A DNA stretch of 48,416 nucleotides, counting the filler, from Jimgerdemannia flammicorona (taxonomy: Eukaryota), in the NCBI GenBank assembly GCA_003990765.1. It is 2 parts of 2 records of this genome, joined end to end, with 100 filler letters (N's around TTAATTAATTAA, not from the genome) between each part and the next. Parts side by side here need not be neighbours in the genome. Positions count along the whole stretch, not along the records: positions 1 to 24,158 come from RBNJ01001016.1; positions 24,259 to 48,416 come from RBNJ01001017.1. The stretch is one strand, 5' to 3'. The notes under the pieces are model-generated. The model was not told where the DNA came from. It did not search any database and was given only the letters and a program-made list of their open reading frames with translations. A program made the position numbers and the translations under genes. Shown in pieces: positions 13,435 through 44,755 of the stretch. The stretch's first letter is position 1, and each line of letters begins with the position of its first letter.

Positions 13435-14532
13435 TTAGACACTGTCTGGGTAGTCTTCAATAATATCACCATTGATGACATCATCTCTGATGAAGTAGTC
13501 ATCTAGAAAAAGTAGTTCGCAAATTACTTCTCCTTGTTCACTGAGGTAATAATACATTGGGACTTCATTACCATCCTATAGGATAGCATCATCTGTCTCA
13601 TATACTGGATAAGGTGTTGGTGGGCAGAGGAGAGGTGCATTGTCTTCGCTTTCATCGGATTCACTGTCTGTATACCTTCTATAGATTATAGCACTATGAG
13701 TCATGGGGTTATAGTAAGCTGGCAGCTGTGGTTTATGTCACTCATACTCAGATGGTAGAGTGGTTGATTCAATCTTGAGGGTTGTCTGGAGGTATAGGTT
13801 GTGTTCTCCAGTCTCTTCATTATAGTTGAAGTAATCAGGGGTGAACATGGGTTGATATTTATGCCAGTGGTCATTGTCTCAATAGGTCTCATAGGTGATT
13901 ATGAACTGTTGTAAGTTCATTGGCAATGTTGGCAGAGTGATCAAAGTTGGCAGAGATTCTTGGCTGGAGGTCATGTTGGCATCAGAGGGATCATTGTCTT
14001 CTGCTTTATCTTCATCAAACTGGATTATATCATAGACATCCTTCATAGTGTATCTAACTTAAGGCATTTGTAGGATATGGTCGTCAGGGTGTGGAAAGGT
14101 TCTGTCTGTGGTCTGGATATACTTGAGGTACTTGTAGTTGAGTTCTTATATCATGTCATCGATTTGACCATAGGACAGAGTAGCAACCATTTCGGTGGTA
14201 GTAACTCAGAGGCAGGGAATAAAGGTGCTATACTCATAGAAGAGTTCTCAGTGTTTGCAGGCAATAAGTTTCTGGTATTGAGACATCTGAGTAATGTCTG
14301 TATTATGGTGGTGTTCGACCATGTCTTCCAGGAGGCAGCCGATCTGGTAGTAGCTTGAGATTTATCCAATTTGGTAGGCCTCGCTAAGTATGTTCAGGAC
14401 ATTCCATTGGGCTTCTACAAAGTAGAGGGGTGCTAGACTATAGATATTCATGAGAGGTAGAGGGGGTGTAGCTCAATTAATAATGGCATTCCAAATGTCA
14501 GCATGGATGCAGTTGTAGATCTCAGTAGTCAT
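13435..14532 (-). pseudogene. U3-encoded accessory ORF of element A, 365 codons (3' LTR copy)
   Basis: ATG at 14532 to TAA at 13435, 1098 nt with no net frameshift. Internal stops are TGA/TAA/TAG explainable by C>T. Same length in both LTRs. Confidence 0.8.
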
Positions 14533-14823
14533 ATTTGTGTATATTTAGAAGTTGTGGTTGTTGTTTTGTTTTAGTTCTCTGTTTGACACATCTTAGTGCT
14601 CAGTATATATGTATTTGGTCCTGATTGGTAAGATTCCATTTGTATAAATCTTGTGTTCTGTGACTTTGTATTGACTCAGCTTTGTACACTGTGACATCAG
14701 TTTAACTCAGCTTCATGACTGAGCAGGTGATTTCCAGATTTGTTCAGAGGTTGCATGTGATTTTGGTGGCTTGTTCAGAGAGTAATGTGTGATTTCGGTG
14801 GCTTGAAGATTATGTGCTTACAA

Positions 14824-14836
14824 CTCTCCCCTTCTT
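14824..14836 (-). promoter_or_regulatory. Polypurine tract of element A
   Basis: AAGAAGGGGAGAG, one base before the TGTAAG start of the 3' LTR on the minus strand. Confidence 0.9.
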
Positions 14837-14850
14837 AGCTTTCAATGTCC

Positions 14851-15188
14851 TCATTGGGGCCTTCTAATTTGTTCTAGCATTGTTATATCATTTGGAAGGT
14901 TAAAAGTCTGGTGAAGTTCATTTTTCTCAGAAAGTGGCATGCTCATAGTACAGTTGCCTAACATATTGGATTCACACATTAAAGGGTCATGTGTTCAATG
15001 CCATGTGCCAGAAGTGATTCTGACATCATTCACTGCTGGAGAATTTCCTCTAAGGAATCTTCTTAAATGTCTATGCCTCATTTCCCACCAGTGGTATGGG
15101 AAGAATAGGCTTGCTTTCAGTTTTGTTATTTTTTCAGAGGGTTGGTATTCTTTGTCTTGACTTGCTGAGTTCTTGATTTTTTACTCAT
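14851..15188 (-). pseudogene. Candidate small ORF (~112 aa) between pol and PPT in element A
   Basis: 110 codons from 15180 with a single internal TGA (likely CGA). ATG at 15188 joins the frame if the A6 run was A7. Confidence 0.4.
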
Positions 15189-15248
15189 GATAATTATAAT
15201 GTTTGAGAGGGTAATATATAGTGTGTACTAATAGGTGTCAGATAGATT

Positions 15249-15537
15249 TTAGTTGTTCAAGAAATCATATTCCTAAACTAAGTTGGTAGCATTCTGGAGA
15301 TTGGTCTTGGGTTCTCATATTGCATCATAGATCAGGTAACCTTTCCATTTAATAAGGTACTCAGGGTGGTTCTTGTTGTCACCTTTGTTGAGAATTTGTT
15401 CAACTTCATATTCTTCTTGATTATTAATTATGACAGGTGCAGGTGGTTCAGTGGTCTGGTTTGGAAATAGCTCATCATCATTTTCATTGTATCACTTGAG
15501 ATATTGGACATTAAAGACTGGGTGAACCCTTATAGTG

Positions 15538-15571
<34 letters not shown>

Positions 15572-18500
15572 GTCACTTGGACTCTTCCTTTATTACACCC
15601 ATCTATCTCATATAAGTACAGTGAACACACCCCCTCTCCAATCCCCTAGGGGGGGCCCCTCCCCTCTATCCCTTCTCAACAAAACACCACTCTATCAAAT
15701 ACAATCCCCACCCTCCCACCACTCTGTTCATACATCCTCACCACCAAACCTCGCCATTGCCCCTCTGAAGGACCCCAACCTATCCACCATCCAGTCACCA
15801 GATCCCCCAACAGCTCCTCTCACCTTAAAACCTTCTCTTGTAGACTCATCTACTACCTCTCCTCAAATACAAATAGCCAATGTCCTGCCAATCCCATCCA
15901 AACTACTAATATCCACCCAATAGTGAGCCAACTATCACCCATCCCCCCTACTAGCTGTGATCTCAAATCCTCCCAATGACCCCCCTCACCCACTGGCCTA
16001 TATCCTACACCCAGTCTATTTCCTATTTCAACCCAAAAGTCCCCCAAAACCTCACACTCTCTCAGCCAATGTTCCAGTATCTGCACCAAACCCCCAGCTT
16101 GCCCTACATTGTAACACTCCTCACAATTGAAACAGCCACCATCCACCAGATGCCCTGTGCAGAAATTCAGCATGACATTCCTCTGCAGCATTCACCACCA
16201 CACCACCCAGAACTTGGGGGGAAGCCACTGCTATACCTCAGTACTCCAAGACCAGACTCTTATAGTGTCTGGTAGCACCAATTTGTAGAAAATAGGAGAG
16301 ACTTGTGTGATGACTTTGAATGGTCCAATGAACTTGCTGTTCAGCTTTGTAGATAGTCTGTGCTTAAGGTTGTCTACTCAGTATCCTTGGATATCCAATA
16401 GAACTTTTTCTCTAATATCAAATATTTCTTCTTAGTAGTGTTGATTAATATACTGTAATTGTTGTTCTTGAGCTCACAATAAGTTCTCAATTATGATCTG
16501 ACTTAGATTACACATTCAGAGTAAGAATTCTTCAATAGCTTCAACTGTAGAGGGTTCTTCAGTAGTTCGGATAAGTGTCAAAGGGGTGTTTGGGTTTTGT
16601 CCAATGTTGGCAAAAAATGGGGTCATTCCAAGAGAGGCTTACTTGCTATTATTATAGGCAAACTTGACTGTGGTGAGATGTTCATGCCAATTATCTTGTC
16701 TGTAGAAAATATAGTTTCTTAGCATTTGTTCCAGAGTTCAGTTCATTCTTTCAGTTTGGCCATCAGTTTCAGGGTAAAAGGCTGTGGATAGTGCAAGTTT
16801 TGTTCCAAGGTATCCATGGAGGACTTTCCAAAAATGGCTAGTAAACTTTGGGTTCCAGTCACTAACAATGGTCTTAATAGTGGAAGATGTTATCGAACAA
16901 GAGTGTAGCTATGTCTAGAGCTGTTGTTGTAGTAGTAGTAGGCACAAAGTGAGCTTGTTTACTAAGATAGTCCATAAAGACAACAATTGCATCTTTTCTG
17001 TTCTTGGTTCGAGGTAGTTGTACATATAATGAAGTCCATAGAGATTTGTTTCCAATTAGCAGATAGTACTGGGATAGGGTGAAGTAAACCAGGTTTTGCA
17101 AGTGTTGAGGACTTGTTCCATTGGTAGATATCATAGGAAGTAATATAGGTCTTGAGCTGATCTGCCATGCAGAGCCAATAGAAGTTTCAGGAGATAACTT
17201 CATAGTATTTGTCAAATCCTAAATGTCCAGCTGTAGGGGCATTATAATATTCAAATAGAATGGTTCTTCAGAGGTCTCAGTTGTTTAGAACATACAGTCT
17301 GTCCTTGTAATAGATAGCATTTTCCTTGAGTTGATATTGATGGTACCAGGTATGCTTATCAGTATCATCACTATTCAGAATTTCTCAGAGTGCTTGAGCT
17401 TCCTTATCATCAGCACATGGTACAATAATTTGTTCCATGATAGTGTTGGTAACCAAGGTGAGAGTTTGGATAACTTCTTTGATTAGTGGTCTAGATATTA
17501 CATTGGCAATAATGTTTTCCTTGCCAGGGCAATACTGGATTTTATAGTCAAAGTTAGTGAGGACTTTCATCCATCTGGCTTGCTTTCAAGAAAGGGTAGC
17601 CTGTATCTTGATATTGACTAATGACTTGTAGTCAGTCAATATAGTGAAGTGTACTCCTTCTAAATATGATTGCCATTTGATCAAAGTGTCTATGATGGCT
17701 AACATTTCCTTCTCATGAGTTGCATAGTTGATTTCGGCATCATTGAACTTGTGGGAATGATAGGCCACAGGGTGTCCTTCTTGCATGAGCACTGCTCCAA
17801 GAGCTAGGTCAGAGGCATCAATAGTGACTTCATATAGCAGGGCAGGATTTGCCACTTGAAGTACTGGAGTGGTTATCAAGGCATCTTTCAGTGCTTGAAA
17901 GGCTGTATCTTGTTCAGGTCCCCAATTTGCAAGATTGTTGAAGTCTTTTTCTTGTTTCATAGTCCAGGGCTGTTCTTCTTTCTTACTGTACTTGGTCATT
18001 TGGGTAAGGGTGGTAGCAATTTTGGTAAAGTTGGTAACAAATTGTTTGTAATAATTTGCTAATCCTAGGAATGACTAGAGGTCCTTCAGCTTCTTGAGTC
18101 TGGACCAATCCTTGATTGTGGAGATTTTGCTGGGGTCTACTTTGATTCCATTGGGTGTGACAATATATTCAAGGAATTGGATTTCCTTCAGGAAAAATTC
18201 ACACTTGCTGAGTTTTGCAAAGAGTCAGTTTTCTTAGAGTTTCAATAGTATTAGCTCGAGGTATTCAAGATATTCCTCCAGGGTTTTGCTGAAGACTAGA
18301 ATGTTGTCAATGTAGATAATAACAAATTTGTCCAGGTATAGGTGCAGGATGGTGTTCATCAGTGTCTGAAAGATTGCAGAAGCATTGGTTAAGCCAAAAG
18401 GTATAACCAGGAACTCAAAGTGTCCATAGCAAGTTCAGAAGGCTGTCTTGTAGATGTTTTCTTCTTTTATAGCAATTTGCCAATAGCCATTTTGCAGATC

Positions 18501-19607
18501 AAAAGAGCTCATGAATTGTAGGTTGGTGAGTCTGTCAAATATCTCATTGATTCTGGGTAGTGGACAGCAGTTCTTGATGATCTGTTCATTGAGGTCATGG
18601 TAATCAATGCACATTCACAGGTCTTCTCCTTTCTTAACAATAAAGAGGACCAGTATACCATAGGGTGATATACTGGGTCTGATGAATTCTTGTTCTAGGA
18701 GCTCATTGATTTCTTTCTTGAGTATATCGATTTCTCTTGGCAACATGTGGTAGATTGACTTGAAGGCTGGCTTGGCATCTGGAATAGTCTTGATGATATA
18801 GTCTACTGCTCATTTAGGAGGTAGGCCTTTCAGAAGCTTCTTTGGAAATATGTCTCAGACTTTCTGAAGTAGTGGTCTGACATGGCTGTCAACTTTGGAA
18901 AAGTCTTCTTCAGAGTTCTCAGGTTCTTCTTTGGATGGGCAGATGGAGATAGTAAAGAGAGGGCATTTCTTGGCCAATTTCTTGAGTTGTAACTTGTTAA
19001 TGTGGGTGATCTTTGGTCCAGAGTCACTAGAACTAAGTGGGTCCTTTTTACCTTACAGTTTGAAGTTGTGGCATCCTTTCTTGATGGTCAGAGAATGGTT
19101 TACCCAATCAATCATAGGGTTCTCTTGTTTCAACCATAGAGTTCTAAGGATGATTTCATTGTCCGGAAGTGGTACAATCTGGAGGATAACATATACTCAA
19201 TAGTCACCAATTTGAAAGAGTAGATTGCGAACTTCCTTACTGATAACATGTGAGGTTCCATCGGCTATAGCAACTGCTTGAGTTTGTTGTACTGAAGAGG
19301 TGAAGACCTTGAGTCTGTTGGCTGTTTCTTTATTAATAAAGTTGTCTGAGGCACTACTGTCTATCATAATCTTAACAGGTGCTTGGTTGACAAAAGCTTG
19401 AAGTGTAAGCAGTTTGTCTGATCTAATAGTAGTAATTTCAGTTATAGGAGCTTTTCTTCTATTGGTTCTTCTTTGAGCCAATTCATTGATATAAGAGAAG
19501 CAATCATCAATCATTCAGGATGAGTACATTCCAATACCATGGGGGCATCAGCCACTTGGTACATATTCATCTTTGATTTTCTTATAGAATTGTTCTTCTT
19601 TGTTCAT
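15249..19607 (-). pseudogene. pol: pol of element A: protease, RT, RNase H, integrase, chromodomain
   Basis: IMIDSSASDNF (PR), YIDNIL for YIDD (RT), TIDASDLALGAVL and YATHEKEMLAI (RH), ISMDFI and [11 protein letters not shown] (IN), EEYEVEQIL...YLIKWKGY...EPKTNL (chromodomain ~15270-15420). Confidence 0.93.
15541..16258 (-). mobile_element. 5'-truncated LINE inserted in the integrase C-terminal region of element A
   Basis: Poly(T) 15541-15568. TSD cttatagtgtct (15529-15540 / 16259-16270). Close match to 12460-13146. Confidence 0.95.
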
Positions 19608-19627
19608 AATAGGTTGGACTGGGCCTT

Positions 19628-20038
19628 GTTTGATGAGCCAAATCCTTTGGATTCTTGGATGGTGGGTAGTAGTTCAGGGACTTTTTTGACTATCAGAGTT
19701 GACTCGATTTTTTCGAATAGGATCTGGGCAATGCAGAAACCTATGGGAATCTTGAAGAGTGTCCAACTATGGTTTCGGATAAGGATAATAATTTCACCTG
19801 TATAATCTTTGTCAATGACTCCTCCTTCTACTGAGAGTCCTTTTAATGCTAGACTGCTGTGACAGCATATTCTTCCAACATGTCCTTTAGGGATTTGGAT
19901 ACTGATTCCTGTATAGACTTGCTTGACTTCTTGGTTGGAAACTATAGCTTCTTCAGCTGCATATAGGTCATATCTAGCTGCTTTTTGGCTTCCTTTAGTT
20001 GGGGCTTTGGTAGTTTGTCTTAGCTTGACAAAATATAG
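19628..20038 (-). CDS. dut: dUTPase domain (trimeric type) within the element A polyprotein
   Basis: Manual translation: LYFVKLRQTTKAPTKGSQKAARYDLYAAEE...TGISIQIPKGHVGRICCHSSLALKGLSVEGGVIDKDYTGEIIILIRN...CIAQILFEKI...QESKGFGSS. All five dUTPase motifs are in order and the domain has no stop. Confidence 0.93.
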
Positions 20039-20107
20039 TGTTCTGGTAGTCAGATTATTGAGGTGGTATAGAGTAGTAACAGTTGCTCATATTACTGTTT
20101 GGGGTTT

Positions 20108-22350
20108 TTAGTTGGGGCAGGCACTGGTCATGTGTTCTATCTTTTGGCAATAGAAGTATGCTCCGCTTCTTTGAAGTTCATTTCTTTCACCTTCAGTGAG
20201 TTTCTTGAAGATACTCAGCTGGGTGGGTTTATGATTTCTGAGTGTCCAAGAGGTGGGTGTTGAGGGAGTTTGGGATGTTTCATACTTGGGTTCTTCTTTT
20301 TTAGTCCAAGTCTTTTCCTTGTTGTTGAATTGTCTTCAGGGCAGAATTGGTCCAGCTGTTAGGATTTGCTTGACCATAGTCTTGATTCTTGCTAGGCACT
20401 ATTGTTGGTGATCACAACCAACTGGGCAGCCTTGTTCATGGATTTTTCTAGTAAGCCATTCAGGCAGGGTATCAAATAAATTGTCTGCTCTTATACCATT
20501 TCATGCTTCATCATTGGTAATATATCCTAGGCCAACAGTGTTCAGGAGTGACTCGAGTTTTGTACAGAAGGTTTTGAATTCTTCTTTGCCATATATATCA
20601 AATTTGAGGTTGCAGAGTTTTACTTGAGATTCAGCAATTATGGTTTCACTATAGTATTGGGCAATCATGAGTTGTTTGAGTCCAGGGGCTGCAGGATAAG
20701 CTCTATATCCTGGGATATTATTTGCTATATTCAGGCAACTACTGCAGGTCGGGTATCCCATGTGAGGGGTTTTTCAGAAAGGATTCATCACTATTCTTCA
20801 GCAGGTCCTCAGAAGAATGTAATAACTCAGCAGACATAGGCTGTAGTAGTAGCAAAGAGTTGTTTCAGAGTATGGTTATTTATCAGCAGGCAGTCAGCAA
20901 CTTGCTCATTGGTCTATTGATTGGCTTCAAAGTTGGTATCAACTACACTAATGAAGCTTTGAACTTCTTGTGCAATACCATTGAAGGTAGATAGGCTCAG
21001 ATTTTTGGTAGGTCAGATCTGTTTGGCTAAGGCAGTAATAGTTGCTGTCATTATGGCTACTTGAGCCATGAGGTCTAGAATCTGTTAGTTTGCCATATTG
21101 TTTACTGGAAGCAGTTGGACTATTGGTAGTAGTGTTGCTGGTACTACTTGAGGTACTGGTACAAAGTGTGATAGAGTTCTCTGAGTCTGTGTAAGTTGCT
21201 AGAGTAGTAGTTGTGGGTCTGGAGTAAGAGCTTAGTAGATAACCATTTGTTGCTATGTTGGTATATTTTGTCCTGATGGAGGCACATCTCCTTCAGTGGT
21301 GTATCTGGGATTGAATTCACTGAGATACTCCTCCTCCTCTTCAGTTTGGTCCTCATGTAGTTGAGTTTGCTCAGCATCAAAATAGACAGAATCAGTTGTA
21401 TATCTGATTTTGGATGGACTTAATTCAAAGTCAAGTTCTGGTTTGGTATTGGTTTCTGGTTTAGGTAGAGCTGTAGCTGGGCCTGCTTCTGGTTCAGAGT
21501 CAGGTAGTTGATGAAGGGTTTCTCTTGCTTCTTCTTTAAAAATATAGCGAGTCTTACTGTTTTGGAATCAGTAGTATAATGCAGTCTTGGTTCTGGTATG
21601 GTGAAAGTCAGTAGAGTTGAGCCACTTGGCTACAGAGGCTTAGGCTTTGTGAGAGACTAAGGCTAGAAAGACTGCTGCTGATTGTCCTAGGTCACTCGGA
21701 TTTGTAGAGCTGACAAAACTCTTGTTGAGAAGAGTAAAGAAGGCTTCTATAAGACCTTCTTCATCTTGACTTACTGGGTGTAGAGCAAGGAGTTCAGTGA
21801 ATAGGGTTTCGCCTATTTGCTGATTTAACTAGAGTATTTCTTTCTTCAAATGAAATTTGTCCCACTTGTTGTAGGTATAGAGGTCAAATTGTCCTTGTAT
21901 ATCAGATTCAATTCTCTCCAGATTGTCAGATAGTTCAGGATAAATTCCAGTTCAGAGATTGGGCTTTATACCAACTTGTAGGAATTTGCAGAGGGGTTTA
22001 TAGTGGGGTGAGGAAGCATCTTGAAGTGGAATTGGATTGTAAACTGCTGCTACCAAGTTATTAGAGGGTTGCTTTTTAGAGTAACTATTATGTAGTTCTG
22101 GAAGGGTTTTCTGGAAGTTCTGAATATTCTGGAAGACTGTTTTCTTAAGATCAAGATCAATTTCATATAGAGTACATCCTCTACACTTATTGATTTCAAG
22201 ATCAGGTTGATGTTTCAACCAAAGTCCCTTTTTGGACTAGTTCTGGATGTTCAGGATTTTCTATATTTCAGGAAGTTCAAGAAACTTAGACCAGCTTAGT
22301 GGAATTGGCATATCACTGCAGACAATACCCAATTAGGAAATTTCATGATG
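20108..22350 (-). pseudogene. gag: gag of element A with long N-terminal extension and CCHC knuckle
   Basis: KKLTEGERNELQRSGA(Y/C)FYCQKIEHMTSACP knuckle at ~20110-20210. Capsid-like region 20450-21010. Upstream coding-like frame runs back into the LTR. Confidence 0.8.
22044..22055 (-). promoter_or_regulatory. Primer binding site of element A (probably tRNA-iMet)
   Basis: TGGTAGCAGCAG starting 3 nt after the 5' LTR end. TGGTAGC is complementary to initiator-Met tRNA 3' ends. Confidence 0.75.
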
Positions 22351-24115
22351 GAATTAGGAGTGGGATCTAATGGAGAGCAGATTTACTTAAGAGTGGTTTG
22401 TGGGTTATTAAATAGGTTTATTCACTATTCATAATATTACTATACTAGAAGTAGTTATATGAAGGGATATTATAGGGAAGTGTTCAGAAGTTGTATTCAG
22501 ATTTATTCAAGTCTGAGATTCTGAGGTCTGGGGGAGGGGGTATTTATACTAGTGAGGAGCTATCTGAACTATGCTAAATATGGATATAGCACTTAGTGCC
22601 TTACTGAGTCAGAATGCAGTCATATAGTATAAGTGTGATCTGATATGTCAAGAGATTGTCTGACTGCTGAGTCAGTTCACAGTTACGTCATATAAGACTA
22701 ATCTAACTATACTATGACTGCTAAGCTATTTATAGGTTTAGATACTATCTGGGTAGTCTTTGATGACATCACCATTGATGACATCATCTTTGATGAAGTA
22801 GTTGTCTAGAAAAAGTGGTTCACAGATTACTTCTCCTTATTCACTAAGATAATAATACATTGAGACTTCATCACCATCCTATAGGATAGCATCATCTGTC
22901 TCATATGCCAGATAAGGTATTGATGGGTAGAGGAGAGGTGCATCATCTTCACTTTCATCAGATTCACTGTCTGTATACCTTCTATAGGTTACAGCACTAT
23001 GAGTTGTGAGGTTGTAGTAAGCTGGTAGCTGTGGTTCATATCACTTGTACTCAGGTGGTGAAGTGGTTGATTCAATCTCAAGGGTTGTCTGGAGGTACAG
23101 ATTGTGTTCTCTGGTCTCTTCATTGTAGTTGAAGTAATTGGGGATAAATGTGGGTTGGTATTCGTATCAGTGGTCATTGTCCCAATAGGTCTTATAGGTG
23201 GTTATGAACTATTGTAAGTTCATTGGCAATGTTGGCAGAGTGATCAAAGTTGGCAGAGATTCTTGGCTGAAGGTCATGTCAGAATCAGAGGGATCATTGT
23301 CTTCTGCTTCATCTTCATCCAACTGGATTATATTGTAGACATCCTTCATAGTATATCCGACTTGAGGCATTTGCAGGATATGGTTGTCGGGGTGTGGGAA
23401 GGTTCTGTCTGTGGTCTGGACATACTCAAGGTACTTGTGGTTGAGTTCTTGTATCATATTGTCAATTTGACCATAGGACAGAATAGCAACCATTTCGGCA
23501 GTAGTAACTTGGAGGTAGAGAATAAAGGTACTATACTCATAGAAGAGTTCTCGGTATTTGCAGGCAATGAGTTTCTGGTTTTGAGACATCTGGATAATAT
23601 CTATGTCATAGTGATGTTTGACCATATCTTCCAGGAGACAGCTGATCTAGTAGTAGCTTGAGATTTGTCTGATTCAGTGGGCCTCGCTAAGTATGTTCAG
23701 GGTATTCCATCAGGCTTCTACAAAGTAGAGGGGTGCTAGACTATGGATATTCATAAGAGGCAGAGGGGGTGTAGCTCAATTGACAATAGTATTCCAAATG
23801 TCAGTATGGATGCAGTTGTAGATCTCAGTGGTCATATTTGTGTATGTTCAGAAGTTGTAGTTGTTGTTTTGTTTTGGTTCTCTGTTCGACACATCTCAGT
23901 GCTCAGTATATATGTTTAGTTCTGATTGGTAAGATTCTGTTTGTATAAATCTTGTATTCTGTGACTTCATATTGACTCAACTTTGTGTACTGTAACTTCA
24001 GTTTGACTCAGTTTCATGACTAAGTAGGTAATTTCCAGATTTGTTCAGAGGTCACATGTGATTTCAATAGCTTGTTCAGAGGGTGACATGTGATTTCGGT
24101 GGCTTGGAGGTTGTG
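22059..24115 (-). repeat. 5' LTR of element A (~2.06 kb)
   Basis: Colinear with the split 3' LTR. Minus-strand TATAAATA at ~22541-22548 marks the U3/R boundary region. Confidence 0.93.
22738..23835 (-). pseudogene. U3-encoded accessory ORF of element A, 365 codons (5' LTR copy)
   Basis: MTTEIYNCIH...QISSYY*I...; includes track ORF 23209..23625. Several stops fall at codons that are sense in the other LTR copy. Confidence 0.8.
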
Positions 24116-24917: not shown

Positions 24918-25303
24918 AGAATCTAAAAGTAATACTTAGACTATTTTACCACAACAGACAATTAAAACTCAGAACTTCCTTATAAGAACTCAGAACTTAG
25001 GGCTGATAATTATCTTGATTATCTGCAATATATTAATTCTCTCAATATATAGTTTATTATAATTTAGTAATAGTAAAAGTTACTCTTATTTATAAGCAAA
25101 CTTCTCTTAAGAAACTTACTATAAATATAAAAATAAAATTTTGAATTTAGATGAATTGAGTTATATTTCTAACAGAAAATGCAAACTTGAAAAAATCAGA
25201 TTTTTTCAATTAAAAAATCACTGCTTAAAAGACGTTCCCATATACCATCTAAGGGATAGACAACTCAGTTAAAATTATCAATATTATTAGTAATAATTAA
25301 ATA

Positions 25304-28300
25304 ACATACCTTTTTCTGATAATATTTAGATTATACAAACTTTTGGCAATACTCAAGATATTGTTTTTAGAGAAAAGATACTAGTAACATAGTAACTAAT
25401 AAGTATTCTGAGATATATATTGAGCAGGGCAGCTCTAGTATATTTGACTGGCAGTATGTAGGGAGGAGTCATGGCTTGGAGAGAAGTATGTGGGGCTTGC
25501 TAACTGGAGGACATGGAAGAGGAAGAGATAGTACTGAGAGACAGAGATCTGAGAGGATGAGCTTTGTAGACAAGATAAAGAAAGGTCATCTAATGACTAG
25601 ATTGGAGGGTTGGTTGAGGAAGAACAAGGAGATAGTGCAAGCTACAGGATCTGATAGAGTAGCTCAGGGCAGAGAGAGCAGTAGGGCTGAGAGAGTAGTG
25701 ACTAGAGAGAGCAGGACTACTGATAGCAAGGAGACTGCTAATCTGGAAAAAAAATTCAAATATAATAGTTGATGGTAGATCTGGATAGAGAGTGAGCATG
25801 AGGCCCAGAGATCTGATGAATAGTATAACAGGTCTGGTGGCAGTACTATTACTTAAGAAATTGAGATCAGAATTTATTATCATATTGTGTTTCTGGAACT
25901 TAGTAGTGATAGTGAGGATGATTCTGAGACTTCTGGCCCAGGAGGTGAAGGGAGCAGTATCAGTGAAGTTTTTGAATACTTAGGAAGAGGTGAAGATGGG
26001 CTTTAAGAAGGAGGGTATGCTGTTAGAAGTGATGGAGAAGGGAGTAGTAGTGGTGGGGAGTAGCAATTCCTATGGCCTAGTGCTTGTACTGGGATCTCTA
26101 AGTAGTATAGCTAATAGTATTGAATGTTCTTATAGTATTGAAGGAGAGGGCCAAAGAGTTGATTGTAGAGACCATTAAGGAGTATAGAGATATTATAAAT
26201 GTTGGGTTTTGGGTCTGGAAAGACATAGAATTCAGAATAGGAGATGTGGATATCAGGGTATAGCTGGTAGATAAGGAGAATATAGAGAAAGCAAGGGACT
26301 GGCCAGTGGTCCTCAAATGGGGACCTGTGGAGTATAAGGTCTCAAGAGTGAAAGGGATATCAGAGGAAGAAGAGGACCTGCTAGAGGCATTGGAGGATCT
26401 GGCTGGGGCTGTGGAGAGAAGGAGATTGGCCTGGAAGGAGTTTGAGCCCAAGACAGTAGTGGAGATCATAAATGGCAAGAGGGTGCAGCTAGATCAGGCA
26501 GCATGGGAGAGGGTCCAGGAGAGGTACATTCAGAAGAATCTGTTGACTAAGTTGGAAGAGAGGGTGGCCAGGGGGACCTCCACTGAAGAGGTAGGATTGA
26601 GGATAAGTATCTGGGCAGAAGAGAAGAGAGCAGTACCAGAGGAGACTCCAGAAGAGAGAGAAGGCTCAGGACTGAGTATTGTTGTTGAGCAGAAATGGCA
26701 GAGGGGGAGTGCCCTCAGTATGGAGTGCTGGGTGGGGCTAGAGGAGATGATGAACTGCAGGATGTGCTGGAGGAGAATTGGGATGAGTTGGTGAGAAGGA
26801 ATACAGAGGGTGAGCAGGTGAAAGGGGGGAAGAGAGTGGCCCAGAGGGTGGCAGAAGCTGTCAATGAGGAGAAATGACTGTAGAAAAAGTTTGAGAATAT
26901 GATAGCTGAGGAGCTGGGGGGAGAGAACTTCCAGATACTGAGCAAGAGGTATTAGAGTGAAATCCTGCAAGGCAAGAAGGTGCTACAGAAACTCTGAGAT
27001 GAGATAATAGTAGCTTTGCTAAAGGCTGAGACATATCAAGTAGATGATAACAGAGAGGCAGCACTTCTGATGATTGCAAATGACAGGGCTGTATATATGT
27101 GGGGCCTGAGAAAAGGGCTGACAAAGTAGCAGGTAGTGTGCAAAGAGTACTGGACAGAGATGGAAGCTGTGGATAGTGTAGATTGTCAGGAGATCTTGGA
27201 GGCATTAGAGGCTCAGCAGGGAGAGGCTGATGAGCTTGAGGTAGAGAGGAACCTAGATGTTGCAGGTGATGCAGCAAGTATAAAATTGTAGAGTAGATAG
27301 CTGTTCTTTTAATAATATTATTCAATATAAACAGTATAACTAGAATCTTATCTTTGAATATCAATGGGCTATAGGGAGTGGTGAGATGTCAAAATATCTT
27401 TAGATGGTTGAAGGGGATGGAAGCAGATTTGTTCCTTCTACAGAATATTGAGTATAATGGGAATTTGTATATTCTAGACTAAATAAAGAAATGGGGTGGT
27501 GTGGCTATTTGGCATAAGTATGTGGGCATTCTGGTTAGGAAAGACAAGGGGGACATTGAAGATATTAGATATTGGGAAAGCAGGGTAGTGTAGAGAGTTT
27601 GAAAGAGACCAGGCTGGAGGCCCTTGATGGTTGGGTCATGTTATTGTCCAGCAGAAAGAGAGGAGAGAGTGGAATGGATTTGAGGGCTACAAGAGTCTGG
27701 AGCATTGGTAGAGACCAGGATTGACTGACTTGGGGGGGACTTTAACATGTTATATAATAGAAGGATAGACAGAACTAATGGAGGAAGGGAGATAGTGGAT
27801 AGGAGTAGTGATATGGAAGTCTGGGAGGAAGTCAAACATCTGAGCTCATTAGTAAATACTGGGAGGCTTGGATGGGGGGATTGTAGGGTCTATACTCACT
27901 GGGTAGCAGGGCTGGGCTCAAGGATTGACTGGATGTTGACCACTGAATGCTAGAGAGTTGTTATTTAGAGAACTTTGGAAACTATTTCATATCTGTGGTC
28001 AGATCACTGGGGTCTGCTAGGAGGGGGTATTTTGGGGGTAATGGGGAAGGGCCTGGACATTGGTGTCTAAATACCTCTACTAGGAGAGACCTTCTTATAT
28101 AATGTATGGATAGTAGATATTAGCTTCAGAATACTTAGTTAGAGAGTGGAGGGGCTGAGGATTGGGGATTACTGGAGGAGATTGAAATCTAAGATACAAC
28201 AATACTGGGGGAAGATAGAAAGGATGCAGGGTGCTCAGAGGAAGAAGTGAGTGAGGTGGATCTCCCAGAGGTTGGCAAGGTTGTTGACATCTTGGGCAGA

Positions 28301-31041: not shown

Positions 31042-31080
<39 letters not shown>
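25304..31080 (+). mobile_element. Full-length, strongly decayed L1/Tx1-like LINE
   Basis: ORF1 remnants 25390-27290. ORF2 with SLNING, GGDFN, SDHW, WRPIMLLD, LDQKKAYD. AATAAA and long poly(A) ending at 31080. 5' boundary approximate. Confidence 0.92.
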
Positions 31081-31082: not shown

Positions 31083-31095
31083 TAATTAAAGAACA

Positions 31096-33189: not shown

Positions 33190-35770
33190 ATGATGCTTCA
33201 AGTTAAATATCCCCAATAATTCCACACCTTCCACATAATCCTTGCTCTAAAATCTGACAACATTGTACTAAGATGGAAGATGATGTTGTTTGTAACTATT
33301 GCAGATATAAAATTAAAAAAAAAATATATATATGCACCTATGATATAACTGACACTTTGTTTGATATATATATAATACTATTTCATCTACTCTCATAAAC
33401 TGCACAGCTAGAAGTTCAAAATGCATGGTAGTTTGACTTCAAACATATATCTATACATAAAAGATAGGTACTCTGATAAAATCAAAAAGAATACAGAGAC
33501 AAATAAAATCAATATCTAAGCTATAGTGGGTATGTTTATCCAATTGCCTGACCATTTCTGTATCAACCCCATTTAATCAAAAATATTTAGCCATACTCTT
33601 TGGTAGAATTTTGAAATTGGCTCATTTACTAGATTGTGTACACAGACCAGCTATTTACAACCATCAAGAGTGATCAATTACATAGTATCTTTGGTCTCCT
33701 CAAGTATGATTTATATTTGCCAAGTGCCAATACTATTTACAAAGATATCTTAGAGATCTATAGGAAGGAGCATGACAATCTCTGCCAGACACTTCAGATA
33801 AAATAAATAAATAAGAGCAGTACTGTGACCTTTGCAAGCTAAATTATATATATATATATTTATAAAGAGCTCACCAATTTAATCTCATATTCAATAAGCA
33901 GAATTTGGCAGGCAAAATTTTGTTTACAATTGATACATAGATATCCTCCAATGTAATTTCATTTCTAGGTATTACTGGTCATTGGATTGACCTTAATTGG
34001 TAGCTTAAATCTCTCACCCTTGACTTTGTCAAACTTGCTGGCCCTCATTCTGGAGACAACATCACAGATGCTTTTATTAGTTATTTCTGAGAGCTTGGAA
34101 TCACAACCAAGATAAAAAAGAGGGGCTTGCCATCAGGTTAGCATTTTGAGAGAGGTCCTAAAACAAAATAGATTTTATTAGTTATTTATTTTTGCATAAA
34201 TTTGCCAACCAAATATTTCAAGTAGAGATTTTGGCCATTATGACAGATAATGCTACAAACAACTCAACATTTTTCTAAGTTTTAGTGGCCAGTCTCAAAC
34301 AGGAAAATGTGGTCTTTGGTATAGAAAGCTACCATATATGATACCAGGCCCATGTACTGAACCTTGCTGTTTAGAACTATCTTATGTATGTAGACAAAAC
34401 ATCTAAGAGAGGAGGGGCCCTGAGTATAGTTTCCAAGCTATGCAAACTGGTTGTGTTGGTCTGATTGTCTCTACAATAACAAGACAAATTTACTGTATAG
34501 TATAGGACAATCAGTTTAGCCCTGAAAGAGCTTATATTAGATATCTGTATACATTGAAACTTAATATTTGCAATGATCCAGTGTATGCTAGAGTTTGCTA
34601 TAGTATGCATCCTTTTTTTTCTTCAGTTGGCTGAAGTAACTTGTTTTGAATAATTGAAGATTATTTTTTTTTAAAAAAAAAAAACAAAAAAAGCCAATAG
34701 ATTCAACAATAGCTGTCAATAAGGAAATGCAGGGCAAGGCTCTAAGTAAAAGTGAGTAGGATGTACTTAGGAATGTTGTCAGAGTTTTGAAAGTAAGTGG
34801 TGATTGCTCTGGCCCTATACTTGTTTTGTCTGCCTCCACATAATGTAATACCTTATTACATATAACTGTCAGTATTTTAATAATTGTACATATAAAGGAT
34901 ATAGTCAAACAAATGACCCCAACAATAAGCTCTATAATACCAGTATATAACCTTCTGATTGACTGGCTAGAAGACTAGCTTAAGAATAGGCTGGAGGGTT
35001 GTGGTGATTTACAGTTAAGCCCAGATCAGAGAGATGCTATGGAGGTTGCTCTAAGCAAGCTCAGAAAATACTACTCCAAAACAGATACCACTATATACTC
35101 AATCAGTATAGATATGTCAGCATGTAACTGTTGCCTCTTCTAAAAACAGAGAAACCCAACAAAAACTCACTCTCTTTCTCTGAACAGTGCTGGACCTATG
35201 CTTAAAGCTATAATACTATAAAGATCAGCTAGGAGTAGCACTCATTGAGAGAACCAAGCAGGCTATAATTGAAACATACTGGAAAAACTATATACCACCA
35301 CAAGGTTCTGGCTGAAGTCCAGATAAATATGCTGAGAGATCCCTCCTGTCCTATATTTATATACTTCAGTAGAAAAAGGAAGAGGGAGCCATTAGTGGAA
35401 GAGCTGTCATCAATAGATGAACTCACCATTTATCTCACCAGTGACTGCATAATCCTACTGAAGGACATAGAGGTGCTCAACTAGTGGAAAGTGAGTTGTC
35501 AGATAGGTAGTTGGTTGTATTGGACCAATTTAATCCACCATTCTAACCACTGCTCTATTCACCAGAGCATACAGCTGCATCAAGCAGACTTCCCCAGCCT
35601 GTGTAGTATGGCTCAGGACTACCTGGCAATTTCTGCCTCCAGCACTCTCATTGAGCAAGTATTCTCAGGTGGGGTGGATCTTGTTGCCCCTAAGAGATGT
35701 ATGCTGAATACTGAGACAATCCAGGATTGTATATATATATCTGAAATCTTGGTAGGGCTTGGACCACTAA
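33190..35770 (+). pseudogene. hAT transposase, intron-containing, disrupted
   Basis: BED-finger-like I*QHCTK...VCNYC. FTIDT*ISSNVISFLGITGHWID, AGPHSGDNI, ILAIMTDNATNN, AHVLNLAV, ELILD (DDE core). FPSLCSMAQDYLAISASSTLIEQVFSGG (hATC dimerisation domain). AT-rich intron-like gaps. Confidence 0.92.
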
Positions 35771-36480: not shown

Positions 36481-36489
36481 CTGAGTCCA

Positions 36490-36655: not shown

Positions 36656-36870
36656 AGTCCACTACAGATTTGAGCCTCATCACCAGTTCGGGTCCCATGA
36701 GCACCCTGGCCCTACACTATAGCACTGTACAGATGGCACTACAGAGCAGGGCCAAGGGGCCAGTAGGGCCCAGCATAATGGCTAAACTAGTGCTACAGAA
36801 GAGGCATCTGGCTGGCAGCCCAACTTCCAATAAAAGACTACTCAACCCATACAAAATGACTACTGAACCC

Positions 36871-39495: not shown

Positions 39496-40703
39496 TGTGA
39501 TGAGCAAATAGTATAATATAGCCAGATGATATGAACCCCCAGTGTAGCATAGTTACTCACCACACTTATAATTAGCCAAGGACACCAAATCAGGGTTGTT
39601 TATCTGTGTTCTGAAGACACACCAGTGTCCAGCAGACACACTCATGTCCTGCGGACACACTTATGTCCTGTGGATATACTTATGTCCTGAGGACATACCC
39701 AAACATTACCAGAAGTAGTAAATCTATAATTATCCAGATAGCAACCAGATAGCAACCACAATGTATAAAATACTCCAGAGACAAGAGTGAATAAACCTCA
39801 GTCCGAAATACAAACACCAAAGAAACCTCTAAAGATTGAGCATTGGTCCCCTTTCCACTCCAGTTCACTTTCTGATACAAAGAAGAGTTTGTTACATTTT
39901 GGTTCGCTTGCCAGATAAGCCTGAAGATTTGCCGCCAAAAGTCTGAGGAAGAACTTCACCGCCATTTAAGTAATCCACCGCTTAAGGAATAAGCCACCAT
40001 TTCCAAGTTATCCACATTCCCAGAGAGCCTGCTATAAGGAACTTACCACAAGCCAGGCTATTTGATGCAACTTCGCAGTAGAGCCAGTCTAACGACGTAA
40101 CTCCATGCAAATGAAGCCAGTCTTTGATGTAACTTGCCAAGAATCTGCATCTGAGTTATCCACAACATCCAAGTTACCCTAGTTATCTGAATTATCCGAA
40201 GTCATCTGAGTTATCCAAGTTATCCAAATTATCCATGCCACCCGAGTATTATTCCCAGTGAGCCGACTCAGGAGAATCTACGCCAAAATCGAGTCATCCA
40301 CCAAATTGAGTTATCCGCCAAATCTGCATAAGGAATATCACCAAGATCATCCCGCATAAGGAATCCACCACACTACACAGAGATCGTTGTGCTACACAGA
40401 GATCGTCATGCAGAAATCGCATACTTTTGGAGATCGTCACTCAAGAAGGAAACCGCTAAATTGCCAGACCATCACGTATACCACGTCACCCACACCTAAA
40501 TCGCTGCTATACCCAGAGAACCATCCCAATAAGGAAATCACTCGCAGATATCCAGCTTTGGCTATTATACCACTAAACACCAACAAGGATACCAAGAATC
40601 TTAGAATATTTTGTTGCTTTTTGACAAAGTAACTGGGGGCTCAAGCCAAACTACATCAACCCCCAACCTTGTAATTTGCCTCCATTGAGCCAGACACATT
40701 ACA
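39496..40703 (+). mobile_element. Solo LTR of family B
   Basis: TGTGATG...CATTACA with 4-bp TSD GTAT (39492-39495 / 40704-40707). Homologous, in inverted orientation, to 42688-44203. Confidence 0.88.
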
Positions 40704-40811
40704 GTATCTAAAACTGCTAGTTGGAAATTCTATAGGAATGTCTATGGAAATTTCTATTAGAAATTCTGTCAGAATTTTCAGTAGCTTGTAAATATGTAAT
40801 AATTCGTTACA

Positions 40812-42687
40812 TCCTTCTTCTTTATCTGAACCTACTCATTAGATTCAGTATTAAACTTTGAATGCTCATCAAACAGAAGGGCAGTATACTGAACTACTTG
40901 AAAAATAATATCACTCTATTATTCATTATTCAAATTGGCAATATTCTCAGAAAATACTCTATAGAGATAGAGTTCAGATACAGAAATAGACATAAAGTCA
41001 CTTAGCAACAATATAGATATAGTTGTTAATGAAAAGGTAGACTTATTGCTTGGTACTACTAAGAGTAGCTTATTGATAAATAAGATATCTAATCTTATAG
41101 TACTTCTTTAATTCTTATTAATAGCAGAAGACCTGAAAATTAGATTCTTCCAAGATATTGTTGGGCTTCATTTAGGTCTGAGTCTTCAAAGATTCATATA
41201 TTGATAGAGAGCAGTTTAGTAGAATTTCATTGATGTTCAAATAGCTATAAGGATAGTAGTAGTAAGCTTGTTTTTGATTTATTCTTAGTGTCTTTATTGA
41301 ATACTTATATTGTGATTGATTATCTGTAAAGAATTTATTTGAGTTATTTATACTTCTTTTTATTGGAAGTATTCAGAAGTATGACTATCTTTCAGAAATT
41401 CCACCAGAATTTCCATTATATCAGATATCTGTATCAGGTTACTACTTTATCTATATTTGATAAAAGATTATCTTCTTTTTCCCAGATAGTATCATACTCA
41501 GGATATCCTTTCTATTTTACAAGATAGTATTGAATAGACTTGGCAGCTCATTCAAATTGTCAATCCTTGTAATTCAAAATATAATTAACTTTATATTCTA
41601 CTTCTTAGTTGATAATAATCAGATCTAAGAGTAGTACTGTTTTTTCTTTAAAGGTGTTTTAAGTATACAGCTAGAGTTGAGATATATGAAACACTGGGTG
41701 GATTTTTTCTAGAGTTGCTGGAAGGTCCAACTTGTATATAACAGGACTATTCTTCTTTAAGATCTTGAATGATCCAATATAGTAGGGTCTAAGTTTCTTC
41801 TTTGGTCCTATATTATCTAGAATTAGATGCCATATGTTAAGTAATATCTATTTTCCTTTTTTGTAAGTGACTTCTCTTTTGTTTTTATCACCATATATGT
41901 ACTACTTATATTCTTTGTACTTCTATGAGAGTATTACATACTTACTAGATAGTATCTTATATATATAATATAGATAACTTCTTATATTACAAGTATTATT
42001 ACTCATATAACAGTTGTGGGGGTTCAGGAGTATTGTCTATAGTTCAGATAGAATGGAGTCATTTTTGTATTTATACTTATACTGTTATTATATGTGAATT
42101 CAGCTAAAGTAAGTTTTTTATCTCAATTATTCTACTTATAGCTATAGTAAATACTAAGTATCTACTTCAGAGTTCAATTAGTTCATTCTGTTTGTCTGTC
42201 TATCTGTAAGTAATAGGCAGTAAATATCTTGAGTTAAACACCTAGTTCTTTGAAGAGTACATACCAGAAGTTACTTGTAAATTTTATATCTCTGTCAGAG
42301 ATAATTACTGATAGTAATTTATAGAGACAGAATATATTATCAATAAATAATTATACTGTTCTAGAGCTGTTACAGTAGTAGTTATTATAATGAAATATAC
42401 CTGCTTGCTGAGGTGATCAATAAAGATAATAATTACATTCCTTCTCTTCTTCATTTTTGACAATTAGACAATAAAGTTTATTCTGATATACATAGTTTCA
42501 ATTTCAGGTGGGAATTGGTAGTGACTGTAGCATTCCAGCTAGAGCTTAGTTGCTAGGCTTATATCTTTAGTGAAAATCATAGGATACAATATAGTTCTTA
42601 TATCAGCTGTCATCTTGGACTAGTAGAAATTATAGGTAACATATCTGTATATCTTATCAAATCTCATATAACTAGCTATGTATGTAT
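40812..42687 (-). mobile_element. Internal remnant of Gypsy chromovirus C (integrase, chromodomain, 3' accessory ORF)
   Basis: IFIDHLSKQVYF, IISDRDIKFTSNFW, AEFTYNNS...KMTPFY (IN). YLVK*KGYPEYDTIWEKEDNL (chromodomain ~41455-41605). Confidence 0.88.
40833..41290 (-). pseudogene. Decayed accessory ORF of element C (homologue of the A and B accessory genes)
   Basis: With frameshifts: IKNKLTTTILIAI ... ELKKYYKI(R/G)YLI ... VAK*LYVYF ... ENIANLNNE**SDIIFQV. Confidence 0.6.
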
Positions 42688-43355
42688 TGTAACATGCCGG
42701 CTCAATGGAGGCAAATTACAAGGTTGTGGGTTGATGTAGTTTGGCTTGAGTCCCCAGTTACTTTGTTAAAAAAGCAACAAAATGTTCTAAGATTCCTGAG
42801 GTCCTTGGTGTTTAGCAGTATAATAGTCAAAGCTGGATATCTGCGAGCGATTTCCTTATTGGGACAGTTCTCTGGGTGTAGCAGCAATCTGTATGTCTTT
42901 TCCTTCTTGGGTCAACTGGGAATGGCACAATTTCTGTGTAGCGCGACGATCTCCTTGTGTGTGATGGTCTGGCAATTTAGCGGTTCTCCTTATGCGATTT
43001 CTGCATGATGATCTCTGTGTAGCGCGACGATCTCTGTGTGACGATCCTCATATAGCATGACAATTTCCAAAAGTATGTGATTTCTGGTGGATAGCTCAAT
43101 TTGGCTCACTGGGAATTGTATGGCGTGGATTCTTCTATACCGGGCTCACTGGGAATGACGAACAACTTGGGTGGCTCTCCTGGGAATGCGGTGGATAGCT
43201 CGAAAACGGCAGATGATGCGGATTCTTCCTGAATCAGCGGGCTTCTGGGAAATAACTCAGACAGTGCGGATTCTTCCTGAATCGGCAGCTTCAACTGGGA
43301 ATTATGTAACTCGGATGGCACAGATTTGGCTTCAACTGAGAATATAGTAGATAAT

Positions 43356-43388
<33 letters not shown>

Positions 43389-44203
43389 TACAGTAGATAA
43401 CTCAAAAACAGCGGCTGATGCGGATTCTTCCTGAATCAGCGGGCTCTAACTGGGAAATGGGATGGCAGCTTGGAAAGGGTCTCTTGGCAAAGTTGCATCA
43501 AAGACTGGCTTTGTTTGTGCAAATGGGTCACTGCGAAGTTGTGTCAGAAACTGGCTTGAGCAAGGCGGCTTTCTCTGGGAATGTGGATAACTTGGAAACG
43601 GCGGCTTATTCCTTAAGTGGCAGATTACTCAAAAGGCAGCAAAGTTCTCCTTGAACTTAGGTGGCAAATCTTCAGGCTTATCTGGCAAGCAAACCAATAG
43701 TTCCAAAGGTGGCAAAGTTCTTTCTCGAACTTGGCGGCAAAATCAGCTTTGTATTGGAAAGTGGACCAGAGTGGAAAGGGGACCAATGCTCAATCTTTAG
43801 AGGCTTCTTTGGTATTTGTATTTCGGACTGAGGTTTTTATTCACTCTCATCTCTGGGGTAATTTATACAAGTTGGTTGCTATCTGATTACTATGTGGCTA
43901 ACTATAGATTTGCTATCTTTGGTAATGTTTGGGTGGGTCCTCTGGGTACAGGTGTGTCCACAGGACATAAGTGTGTCCATAGGACATGAGTGTGTCCACA
44001 GGACATGAGTGTGTCCACAGGACATGAGTGTGTCCTCAGGATACAGGTAAATAATCCTGATCTGGTGTCTTGGCTAATTATAAGTGTGGCAGGCAAGAGT
44101 AACTATGATACACTAGAAGTCACATCATGCTGAGTAAGTATGCTAATTGTTCATGTCATCTGGCTAAGTTATAATTCAGGTGGTACATTTTTGGTCTGTT
44201 ACA
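42688..44203 (-). repeat. 3' LTR of element B (1516 bp)
   Basis: TGTAAC/GTTACA ends, TATAAA near 43862-43867, 20-bp tandem repeats 43952-44040, repeated GCGGATTCTTCCTGAATC. Confidence 0.9.
43355..43383 (+). mobile_element. Poly(A)-only retrotransposition scar
   Basis: T+A28 flanked by a 17-bp duplication gagaatatagtagataa / gagaatacagtagataa. Confidence 0.8.
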
Positions 44204-44242
44204 TCAGCCCCCACTGAAGGGTAGTCTGTCCCAGACTATTCT

Positions 44243-44755
44243 TCAGTCATCATCCCAATAGGCATAAGCAGCTTCTGCATCTATACCTGTTCCATCATCA
44301 TCATCTGAGCTGCGGTCACTCCATTCCAGGGGCTCTTCTTCTTCCTCAGGAAATAGGGTCTCCACTTGGTGAATAATACTGAGGTAGGTGGGCAGTGTCA
44401 TTCTTTGAAGGTCATTCAGGGAAAACTGGGCCTGGACTAAGACAGAAGGATTTCGTTTATATATTGTGTATAGTCTGTCTGCAGCAGTAGTGTTCCTTCT
44501 GTTCAGGCCAGTGGTGTTTCGGACATAGGCTAGGTCTGGGAGAGGAAGATTCTGCAATTGTTCTCCAATTGCATAATATGCCTGTAGCTGGTGGACCTGG
44601 AGTAGTCTCTCAGCCAAGGTGAGGTTCTCTTGATGAACTTGGATTCTCTGAAGATATGTTCCATTGGGTTCCCGGAACTGAGGCAGGGGAACTGGTAGGG
44701 CTTGGAGGGAACTGAGAACAAGAGTTTGAAGGCGGTTGTCAATTCTCTGATTCAT
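44243..44755 (-). CDS. Intact 170-aa accessory ORF of element B, function unknown
   Basis: MNQRIDNRLQTLVL...QLQAYYAIGEQL...AADRLYTIY...acidic tail. Its ATG overlaps the inferred pol stop (ATGA, 44755-44752). Confidence 0.8.
   Translation of the reverse strand: MNQRIDNRLQTLVLSSLQALPVPLPQFREPNGTYLQRIQVHQENLTLAERLLQVHQLQAYYAIGEQLQNLPLPDLAYVRNTTGLNRRNTTAADRLYTIYKRNPSVLVQAQFSLNDLQRMTLPTYLSIIHQVETLFPEEEEEPLEWSDRSSDDDDGTGIDAEAAYAYWDDD

Follow-up and report, generated by a model that had tools for sequence, protein, structure and literature searches.

The window analysed here is a 48,416-nt stretch of Jimgerdemannia flammicorona DNA (assembly GCA_003990765.1), in which two records, RBNJ01001016.1 (positions 1–24,158) and RBNJ01001017.1 (positions 24,259–48,416), are joined by 100 filler letters. 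It is a nest of decayed transposons, including three retrotransposons of the Ty3/Gypsy type with long terminal repeats (LTRs), elements A, B and C, all three of which lie on the minus strand. Element B, which has no chromodomain, harbors between pol and the polypurine tract an additional open reading frame (ORF B) that is a gene conserved in its lineage. Element A, a chromovirus that carries a dUTPase, harbors a decayed copy of an equivalent small gene (ORF A) inside its 2-kb LTR. A preliminary description of this DNA had proposed a single accessory gene family, located at the env-like position and shared by all three elements. What the evidence secures is only that lineage B has the gene, that A has a counterpart in decay, and that the two are weakly linked. 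The explanation to which we give slightly better than even weight is that ORF B is a conserved gene, that ORF A is its decayed and probably distantly homologous counterpart, and that the product would be a regulator or adaptor.

ORF B, an additional gene downstream of pol

ORF B runs from 44755 to 44243 on the minus strand, where it comprises 170 codons and a stop codon and is intact, without an internal stop, as had been described. Its ATG (44755–44753) overlaps the TGA stop codon of pol (44754–44752) in the arrangement ccATGAat (44757–44750), and the overlapping stop and start codons that are looked for in reinitiation are thereby present as ATGA. The frame of ORF B is −1 relative to pol, and pol is closed by the TGA, hence there is no in-frame extension of Pol. 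Downstream, 40 nt separate the end of ORF B from the 3' LTR of element B (42688–44203, minus strand), which is exactly 1516 bp long and bounded by TGTAACA...TGTTACA; the purine run AGTGGGGGCTGA lies in this gap, just upstream of the LTR. This is the placement of a sense additional ORF (aORF), which shares the strand of gag-pol and lies between pol on one side and the polypurine tract and 3' LTR on the other. The env-like position claimed for the whole family is thus correct for ORF B, and incorrect for ORF A, which starts 281 nt inside the LTR.

Thirteen relatives of ORF B were found, all of them metagenome gene calls, with identities of 46–75%. A word-indexed protein search yielded five relatives among 158 candidates, and a profile search of 1.84 billion protein representatives at an expectation value (E) ≤ 0.001 gave six matches, five of which were true relatives; the sixth, a 671-residue repeat protein, is regarded as spurious. 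Members of the matched clusters added four more. Of the relatives, 11 include the N-terminus, and 10 of these have the same start methionine, in the context M(N/T)QR; all four full-length relatives are 170–172 residues long, end in ...YW(D/N)DD, and differ in length by in-frame changes only. A second subfamily (P0010 and P0011), 57% identical to B, has an in-frame deletion of five residues and keeps the frame, and P0012 diverges after residue 64, as expected of a frameshifted copy. Conservation is also uneven along the protein: between window B and P0010, 24 of 34 residues are identical in the stretch 36–70 and 12 of 31 in the stretch 71–105. As start and end are shared, insertions and deletions are in-frame, and conservation is uneven among the relatives, the pattern as read from the protein alignments, drawn from collections that show open frames only, speaks for coding constraint on ORF B. 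That the extra ORF is retained, as the preliminary description held, is borne out by these 13 relatives, which extend down to 46% identity.

Many diverged copies of element B are present among the contigs of four public runs (1679, 120, 87 and 74 pieces), which show only that such copies exist. One contig in each of two runs has an in-frame 3-nt insertion at 44292, in the acidic tail of ORF B, and the protein relatives likewise differ in this tail by whole codons only. Scanning viral contigs for the DNA loci of the relatives, with the ORF A relative P0009 and with the B alignment, gave no loci, and in metagenome contigs 0 of 193 pattern matches to the A alignment and 0 of 554 to the B alignment were confirmed.

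ORF A, a decayed gene inside the LTR

ORF A, too, is confirmed, and each of the two LTRs of element A contains it. The copy in the 5' LTR (A1; 23835–23212, minus strand) has 208 codons with four stops (three TGA and one TAG), and the copy in the 3' LTR (A2; 14532–13909, minus strand) has 208 codons with six stops. Its start lies past the polypurine tract, 281 nt into the LTR, and in both copies the similarity between the LTRs still covers these 281 nt before the ATG. Since it starts this far into the LTR, past the polypurine tract, ORF A is borne by the LTR itself and is not at the env position; nor does it lie between pol and the 3' LTR, where a sense aORF is placed. As it is wholly within the LTR, every LTR of element A carries a copy.

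The only relative of ORF A, found by word-indexed protein searches with A1 and with the relative itself, is P0009, a protein of 128 residues. It is open at all eight window stop positions that it covers (A1 residues 20, 42, 54 and 63; A2 residues 20, 57, 95 and 109) and has arginine or glutamine at each, so ORF A was once a coding frame. On this comparison, the stops fit changes of CGA to TGA, CAG to TAG, and CAA to TAA.

A TATATA sequence lies 77 nt before the ATG of ORF A, and two AATAAA signals lie near LTR positions ~1610 and ~1700 in both LTRs of element A; their agreement carries no weight, as both LTR copies belong to one element. The ATG of ORF A also overlaps the TGA of a 20-codon upstream frame (23894–23832 and 14591–14529, minus strand) in an ATGA that mirrors the junction of pol and ORF B. 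In the copy of the 3' LTR, a TAA truncates this upstream frame, and the ATGA may be due to chance.

Similarity between ORF A and ORF B

P0009 and B align from Met1 of both proteins in BLASTP (E = 0.002), with 17 of 72 positions identical (24%) between residues 1–71 and 1–70, and the decayed window copies of A match B marginally (E of 0.11 and 0.052). The N-termini and the PLP motif of A and B are as quoted in the preliminary description, and so is the gapless run of 39 residues from PLP to YYxIG (A 27–65, B 26–64). Alignment of the two family alignments with hhalign gave a score of 25.5 (E = 0.0036, probability 9%) over 118 colinear columns, and other match-state settings gave E = 0.0016 and a probability of 16%. 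The score of 25.5 was reached by none of 300 column shuffles of A (mean 11.9, standard deviation 2.2, maximum 20.8), by none of 230 shuffles of 8-column blocks (maximum 23.5), and by none of the 87 other stop-free stretches of at least 90 residues in the window (mean 11.4, maximum 17.7), and the reversed A alignment scored 16.0. In five tests with hidden Markov models, shuffled targets reached the real score 3, 2, 11, 3 and 94 times per 2000. When the B profile was run over the six-frame translation of the window, the best match other than itself was ORF A in its own frame, by a small margin (5.4 versus 4.6 bits for the next).

Judged from these alignments, A and B resemble each other weakly, though more than expected by chance, and we consider homology likely, at about two in three. 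The two would probably be distant homologues with a common architecture, consisting of an N-terminal helix, a turn at PLP and a long helix that ends in YYxIG, followed by another helical region and then the acidic tail. The single family proposed in the preliminary description is weakly supported for A and B, whose profile-profile score exceeds all shuffle and window-ORF controls while the hhalign probability stays at 9–16% and a link through the large database is missing; its third member, C, is at noise level. The identity between the ORFs (24%) is lower than that between the reverse transcriptases of their hosts (34%), which would fit vertical descent as well as capture of a gene that the preliminary description took to be mobile.

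The predicted product

The product is predicted to be a soluble, acidic (pI, the isoelectric point, of ~4.5), all-helical protein of ~19–24 kDa. The full-length proteins have pI values of 4.4–5.2, and the charge is concentrated in the last third, reaching a net −11 to −15 in the last 30–32 residues of the three full-length B-type proteins tested; the acidic C-terminal regions noted earlier are indeed found in both A and B. No membrane segment was detected in six proteins tested, where the highest 19-residue Kyte-Doolittle mean was 0.57–1.46, and no Pfam env family was matched at E ≤ 10, the threshold used for Pfam and PDB alike. By these predictions the ORF A and ORF B products do not show the combination of a signal peptide and a membrane-spanning segment that marks an env protein, in agreement with the earlier view that the gene is not env. 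Pfam searches with A1, A2, B and a long form of B gave only sub-threshold chance matches (GrpE, 0.091; RAMP, 0.019), and a PDB sequence search with both profiles gave six chance matches for B (the best, at 0.039, to taxadiene hydroxylase) and none for A. For A and for B, the ESM Atlas returned one and the same ordered list of five unrelated clusters (scores 0.88–0.93; recognition 2411 and 2273), which are read as hub clusters and not taken as evidence.

AlphaFold2 models both products as all-helical. For B, a homodimer predicted with ESMFold2, made without the family alignment, scored 0.62, versus 0.30 for the best of three controls, with runs agreeing in at least 94% of contacts and a partner predicted local distance difference test (pLDDT) value of at least 73. 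Among proteins solved as one-chain pairs, 21 of 30 attained the mark used for homodimers, versus 0 of 23 solved as single chains; among eukaryotic proteins, 17 of 29 pairs and 0 of 30 single chains did so. The predicted interface is symmetric and spans residues 30–84, with the long helix 34–70 packed antiparallel against itself (contacts 52–52, 63–38 and 45–56). The helix of the predicted dimer is the block that B shares with A. As a prediction, the model supports self-association of B.

A possible course of events can be put together from these properties. For ORF B, ribosomes would reinitiate at the AUGA or, equally, a subgenomic or spliced RNA would be translated, and ORF A would be translated from a promoter inside the LTR, for which the TATATA is a candidate, or from the 3' end of the element RNA. 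The product would dimerise through its long helix (residues 34–70 of B) in antiparallel fashion, leaving two acidic, aromatic-studded tails as effector ends, and would most likely serve in the element's own cycle, as a regulator or as an adaptor between proteins. The likeliest role would be nuclear, either raising transcription from the LTR or countering silencing. A role as transactivator or anti-silencing factor, as suggested in the preliminary description, would be compatible with the modelled dimer and its acidic tails.

A bolder version of this idea, which we regard as rather improbable, holds that at least two deeply separated Ty3/Gypsy lineages of fungal type carry a regulatory gene in the style of retroviruses, whose dimeric, acidic-tailed product would boost the element's own expression or blunt the silencing and mutation of repeats by the host. 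In one lineage the gene would have moved into the LTR, making both LTRs and every solo LTR potential expression units, and in the other it would be expressed by an AUGA stop and restart after pol.

Alternative explanations

Several results weigh against the reading favored here. The AlphaFold2 monomer models are poor (mean pLDDT of 46.8 and 42.1). The probability that hhalign assigns to the A–B match is just 9–16%, the B profile did not retrieve P0009 from the 1.84 billion representatives, and the A profile, when scanned over the window, gave B only 1.5 bits, below about ten unrelated chunks. The shuffle test in which 94 of 2000 targets reached the real score is the weak one of the five, and the shared block is a predicted amphipathic, coiled-coil-like helix, a type of sequence that is able to converge. 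Together with an identity of only 24% over 72 residues and with unlike positions, B before the polypurine tract and A inside the LTR, the low hhalign probability, the missing link in the large search, the low rank of B with the A profile and the nature of the shared block favor the notion that A and B are unrelated orphan ORFs, each lineage having its own small helical gene, with a likeness that stems from convergent amphipathic-helix composition and chance motifs. We consider this unlikely, yet it is the most serious of the rivals. Convergence of this kind leaves unaccounted for a score that no column shuffle, block shuffle or window ORF could match and that drops to 16.0 upon reversal of A. 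The alignment, moreover, begins at Met1 of both proteins and preserves the spacing of 39 gapless residues between PLP and YYxIG, and A and B are alike in overall length and in their acidic tail.

A second rival holds that ORF B extends Pol at its C-terminus, that ribosomes get there by a −1 frameshift, and that it takes the place of the chromodomain as a targeting module. In its favor, ORF B has the −1 frame relative to pol, a frame that stays open over the 40 codons upstream of the ATG and overlaps the end of integrase, and the relative P0007 was called with a 41-residue N-terminal extension; B is also without a chromodomain, where A and C have one. The start methionine, at which 10 of the 11 relatives with an N-terminus begin, argues to the contrary, and inspection by eye of the overlap of pol and ORF B, which was not a systematic search, revealed no canonical slippery heptamer. 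The RNA there is not unusual either: the 120 nt before the AUGA of B have a minimum free energy of −18.5 kcal/mol, versus a shuffle mean of −16.4 kcal/mol (z = −0.67; pseudoknots and complementarity to rRNA were not covered), a result that counts against the frameshift and, among the points that weigh against our own reading, against reinitiation. The ORF of A cannot be a Pol fusion, because ~380 nt of non-coding sequence, the polypurine tract, and the LTR border with 281 nt of LTR separate it from pol. We regard a Pol extension as quite improbable.

The least probable rival, by a narrow step below the last, is that the ORFs are not expressed and are open by chance, lying in a 3' region and an LTR whose coding strand is poor in G, and that the copies are similar only because they are recent: the open state of ORF B in the window copy alone is indeed not significant (~1.8 stops are expected in 170 codons at the rate of pol, which has ~9 premature stops in ~850 codons), and its relatives are calls on short metagenome contigs (545–11,765 nt) by gene callers that report open frames only, but in relatives at 46–57% identity the frame and the start are retained, as is the end wherever a relative reaches it, and insertions and deletions are in-frame only, conservation is uneven between residues 36–70 (24/34) and 71–105 (12/31), and P0009 is open where both decayed window copies of A have stops.

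Host elements and repeat mutation

Elements A and B belong to clearly different Ty3/Gypsy lineages as judged from their coding sequences, since their reverse transcriptase–RNase H regions are 34% identical over 472 residues and a dUTPase and a chromodomain are present in A and absent from B. Element A is a Ty3/Gypsy chromovirus. Its 5' LTR (22061–24115, minus strand, about 2055 bp) is followed a few nt inward by the primer-binding-like sequence TGGTAGCAGCAG, and its internal region (14815–22060, minus strand) contains gag, dUTPase, protease, reverse transcriptase, RNase H, integrase and a chromodomain, with many stops. The 3' LTR is in two parts, an upstream part (13160–14814, minus strand), just outside of which lies the polypurine tract AAGAAGGGGAGAG at ~14824–14836, and a downstream part (7069–7483, minus strand), split from it by a long interspersed nuclear element (LINE) of ~5.7 kb. 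The LTRs measure 2053–2055 bp, and the two copies are 88–90% identical. In the read-through translation of 22400–15100, Pfam identified dUTPase (6.4e-28), reverse transcriptase (RVT_1, 1.2e-22), RNase H (8.3e-30) and the chromodomain (2.7e-7); an aspartyl protease, an integrase zinc finger and a Tf2-type SH3 domain are present as well. The dUTPase lies at ~20005–19630 on the minus strand, between gag and protease. Some Gypsy elements of fungi and rotifers are known to have this accessory domain as well.

In element B, pol (44751–47256, minus strand) encodes reverse transcriptase, RNase H and integrase, has ~9 premature stops and changes of frame, and is cut at 47256 by a LINE. No chromodomain was found in element B, where pol stops right after the SH3-like end of integrase. 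At 47256 the contigs of three of the four public runs continue differently, and there are loose ends also at 42688.

The repeats carry a heavy load of transition mutations, in line with what the preliminary description had stated. The LTRs of A differ at 191 of 1653 aligned sites (13160–14814 versus 22462–24115), and 186 of these 191 differences are transitions; the ratio of observed to expected CpG is 0.01–0.25 in all six repeats measured. Both the LTR transitions and the depletion of CpG fit a process of intense C-to-T change in repeated DNA better than they fit age alone.

Element C and other repeats

Element C (40704–42687, minus strand, 28% G+C) is a chromovirus remnant with an integrase core, an SH3-like domain (2.3e-16) and a chromodomain that is matched only weakly (E = 6.9e-4, short of the curated cut-off); its pol ends near 41418. 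The hosts had been said to differ in having a chromodomain, which is correct for A and B, and C has one only by this weak match. Element C has no detectable copy of the ORF. The frame proposed as its ORF (41290–40833) is a series of short motifs that are scattered across two frames and interrupted by many stops. In tblastn, proteins of the A and B types gave no match within 40833–41290 at E < 5, and the A and B profiles reached at best 0.5 bits there, at YYKI, with ~26 unrelated chunks higher in the B-profile list. The motif YY.I is frequent, occurring 30 times in the 96,828 residues of the six-frame translation of the window. The claim that three lineages share the gene is therefore not upheld.

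The proposed LTR sizes hold for A (2053–2055 bp) and B (1516 bp). The supposed 344-bp LTR of C (~40363–40706) is not a direct repeat; it is the terminal ~344 nt of a decayed B-type LTR copy (39497–40703, plus strand), which is inverted relative to B's own LTR and flanks element C. No B-like ORF adjoins this left-hand copy. The inverted B-type LTRs on the two sides of C (39497–40703, plus strand, and 42688–44203, minus strand) could stem from two independent insertions into the same old element or from a rearrangement.

A LINE family with RVT_1, AATAAA, poly(A) and target duplications of 12–14 nt is represented at ~7484–13161 (plus strand), 15554–16256 (minus strand), ~25000–31078 (plus strand), 47257–48416 (plus strand) and 222–1010. 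The ~5.7-kb member in the 3' LTR of A has RVT_1 in plus-strand frames, AATAAA, poly(A) and a 14-nt target duplication, and a 703-nt truncated copy of the same LINE lies in the integrase region of A (15554–16256). LINE insertions have thus hit the LTR of A, the integrase of A, and the pol of B. The sense strand of the LINE is G-rich and C-poor (GC skew of +0.4 to +0.5), giving rise to long spurious open frames on both strands. A "G-rich" repeat next to B and inside A was considered as part of these elements and rejected, as it is the LINE. A hAT transposase dimerisation domain was found at ~35578–35743 (plus strand, E = 1.6e-6), in a stretch with no other assignment, which includes a block of short internal repeats at 35.9–36.5 kb.

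Comparison with known systems

The usual view is that LTR retrotransposons can do with gag and pol alone. To our knowledge, almost none of their conserved extra genes other than env has a known function, and such genes hint at regulation or at counter-defence against the host, as in complex retroviruses. An orphan family, if kept in two Gypsy lineages of a genome that heavily mutates its repeats, would be a good candidate for such a role.

Among retroviral accessory genes, sag of mouse mammary tumour virus and nef of lentiviruses lie in or overlap the U3 region. Like these, ORF A is a small non-structural gene past the polypurine tract and inside the 3' LTR; it differs from them in that no sequence likeness is found in Pfam or PDB, and ORF A may lie in U3 or in R/U5. 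As to Tas and Tax, the acidic activators of complex retroviruses, Pfam and PDB gave no match for A or B. In fungal victoriviruses, the downstream AUG overlaps the upstream stop codon as AUGA, as it does at ORF B, but these viruses are reported to need an upstream RNA element, and none was found before ORF B at the level of predicted folding (z = −0.67).

In plants, aORFs between pol and the 3' LTR of LTR retrotransposons are well known and mostly of unknown function, and Boty is a fungal case (Vicient and Casacuberta, 2020; PMC7264820). Plant aORFs, which are present in most copies of a family, resemble ORF B in lying 3' of pol and in lacking a database match, and some of their products are nuclear. 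Plant sense aORFs are mostly env-like with membrane segments, unlike ORF B, and no mention of a position inside the LTR, like that of ORF A, was found in the review by keyword (PMC7264820). In bdelloid rotifers, ORF3 types are common to unrelated lineages of LTR retrotransposons (Rodriguez, Kenefick and Arkhipova, 2017; PMC5408684). They are like the arrangement suggested for A and B in that one type occurs in different lineages, several of which have a dUTPase; the domains of the rotifer ORF3s can be recognised (fusion glycoprotein, GDSL esterase, DEDDy exonuclease) and their homology is strong, whereas A and B have no known domain and a weak likeness. Fungal chromodomain Gypsy elements have been drawn with an "add. 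ORF" of unknown function, some of them with a dUTPase (Novikova et al., 2010; PMC2864245), and their resemblance to A and B is one of description.

A keyword-based literature search, which is unable to find a sequence, gave no description of this protein family. With plant aORFs, the fungal "add. ORF" and rotifer ORF3 as precedents, the kind of feature is already known, and the genes described here are an orphan family of that kind, namely additional ORFs of LTR retrotransposons. What is new is a protein family without a named relative in the collections searched, the possible sharing of this family between a chromovirus and a non-chromovirus lineage, and the position of the A copy wholly inside the LTR, an unusual arrangement for a retrotransposon gene.

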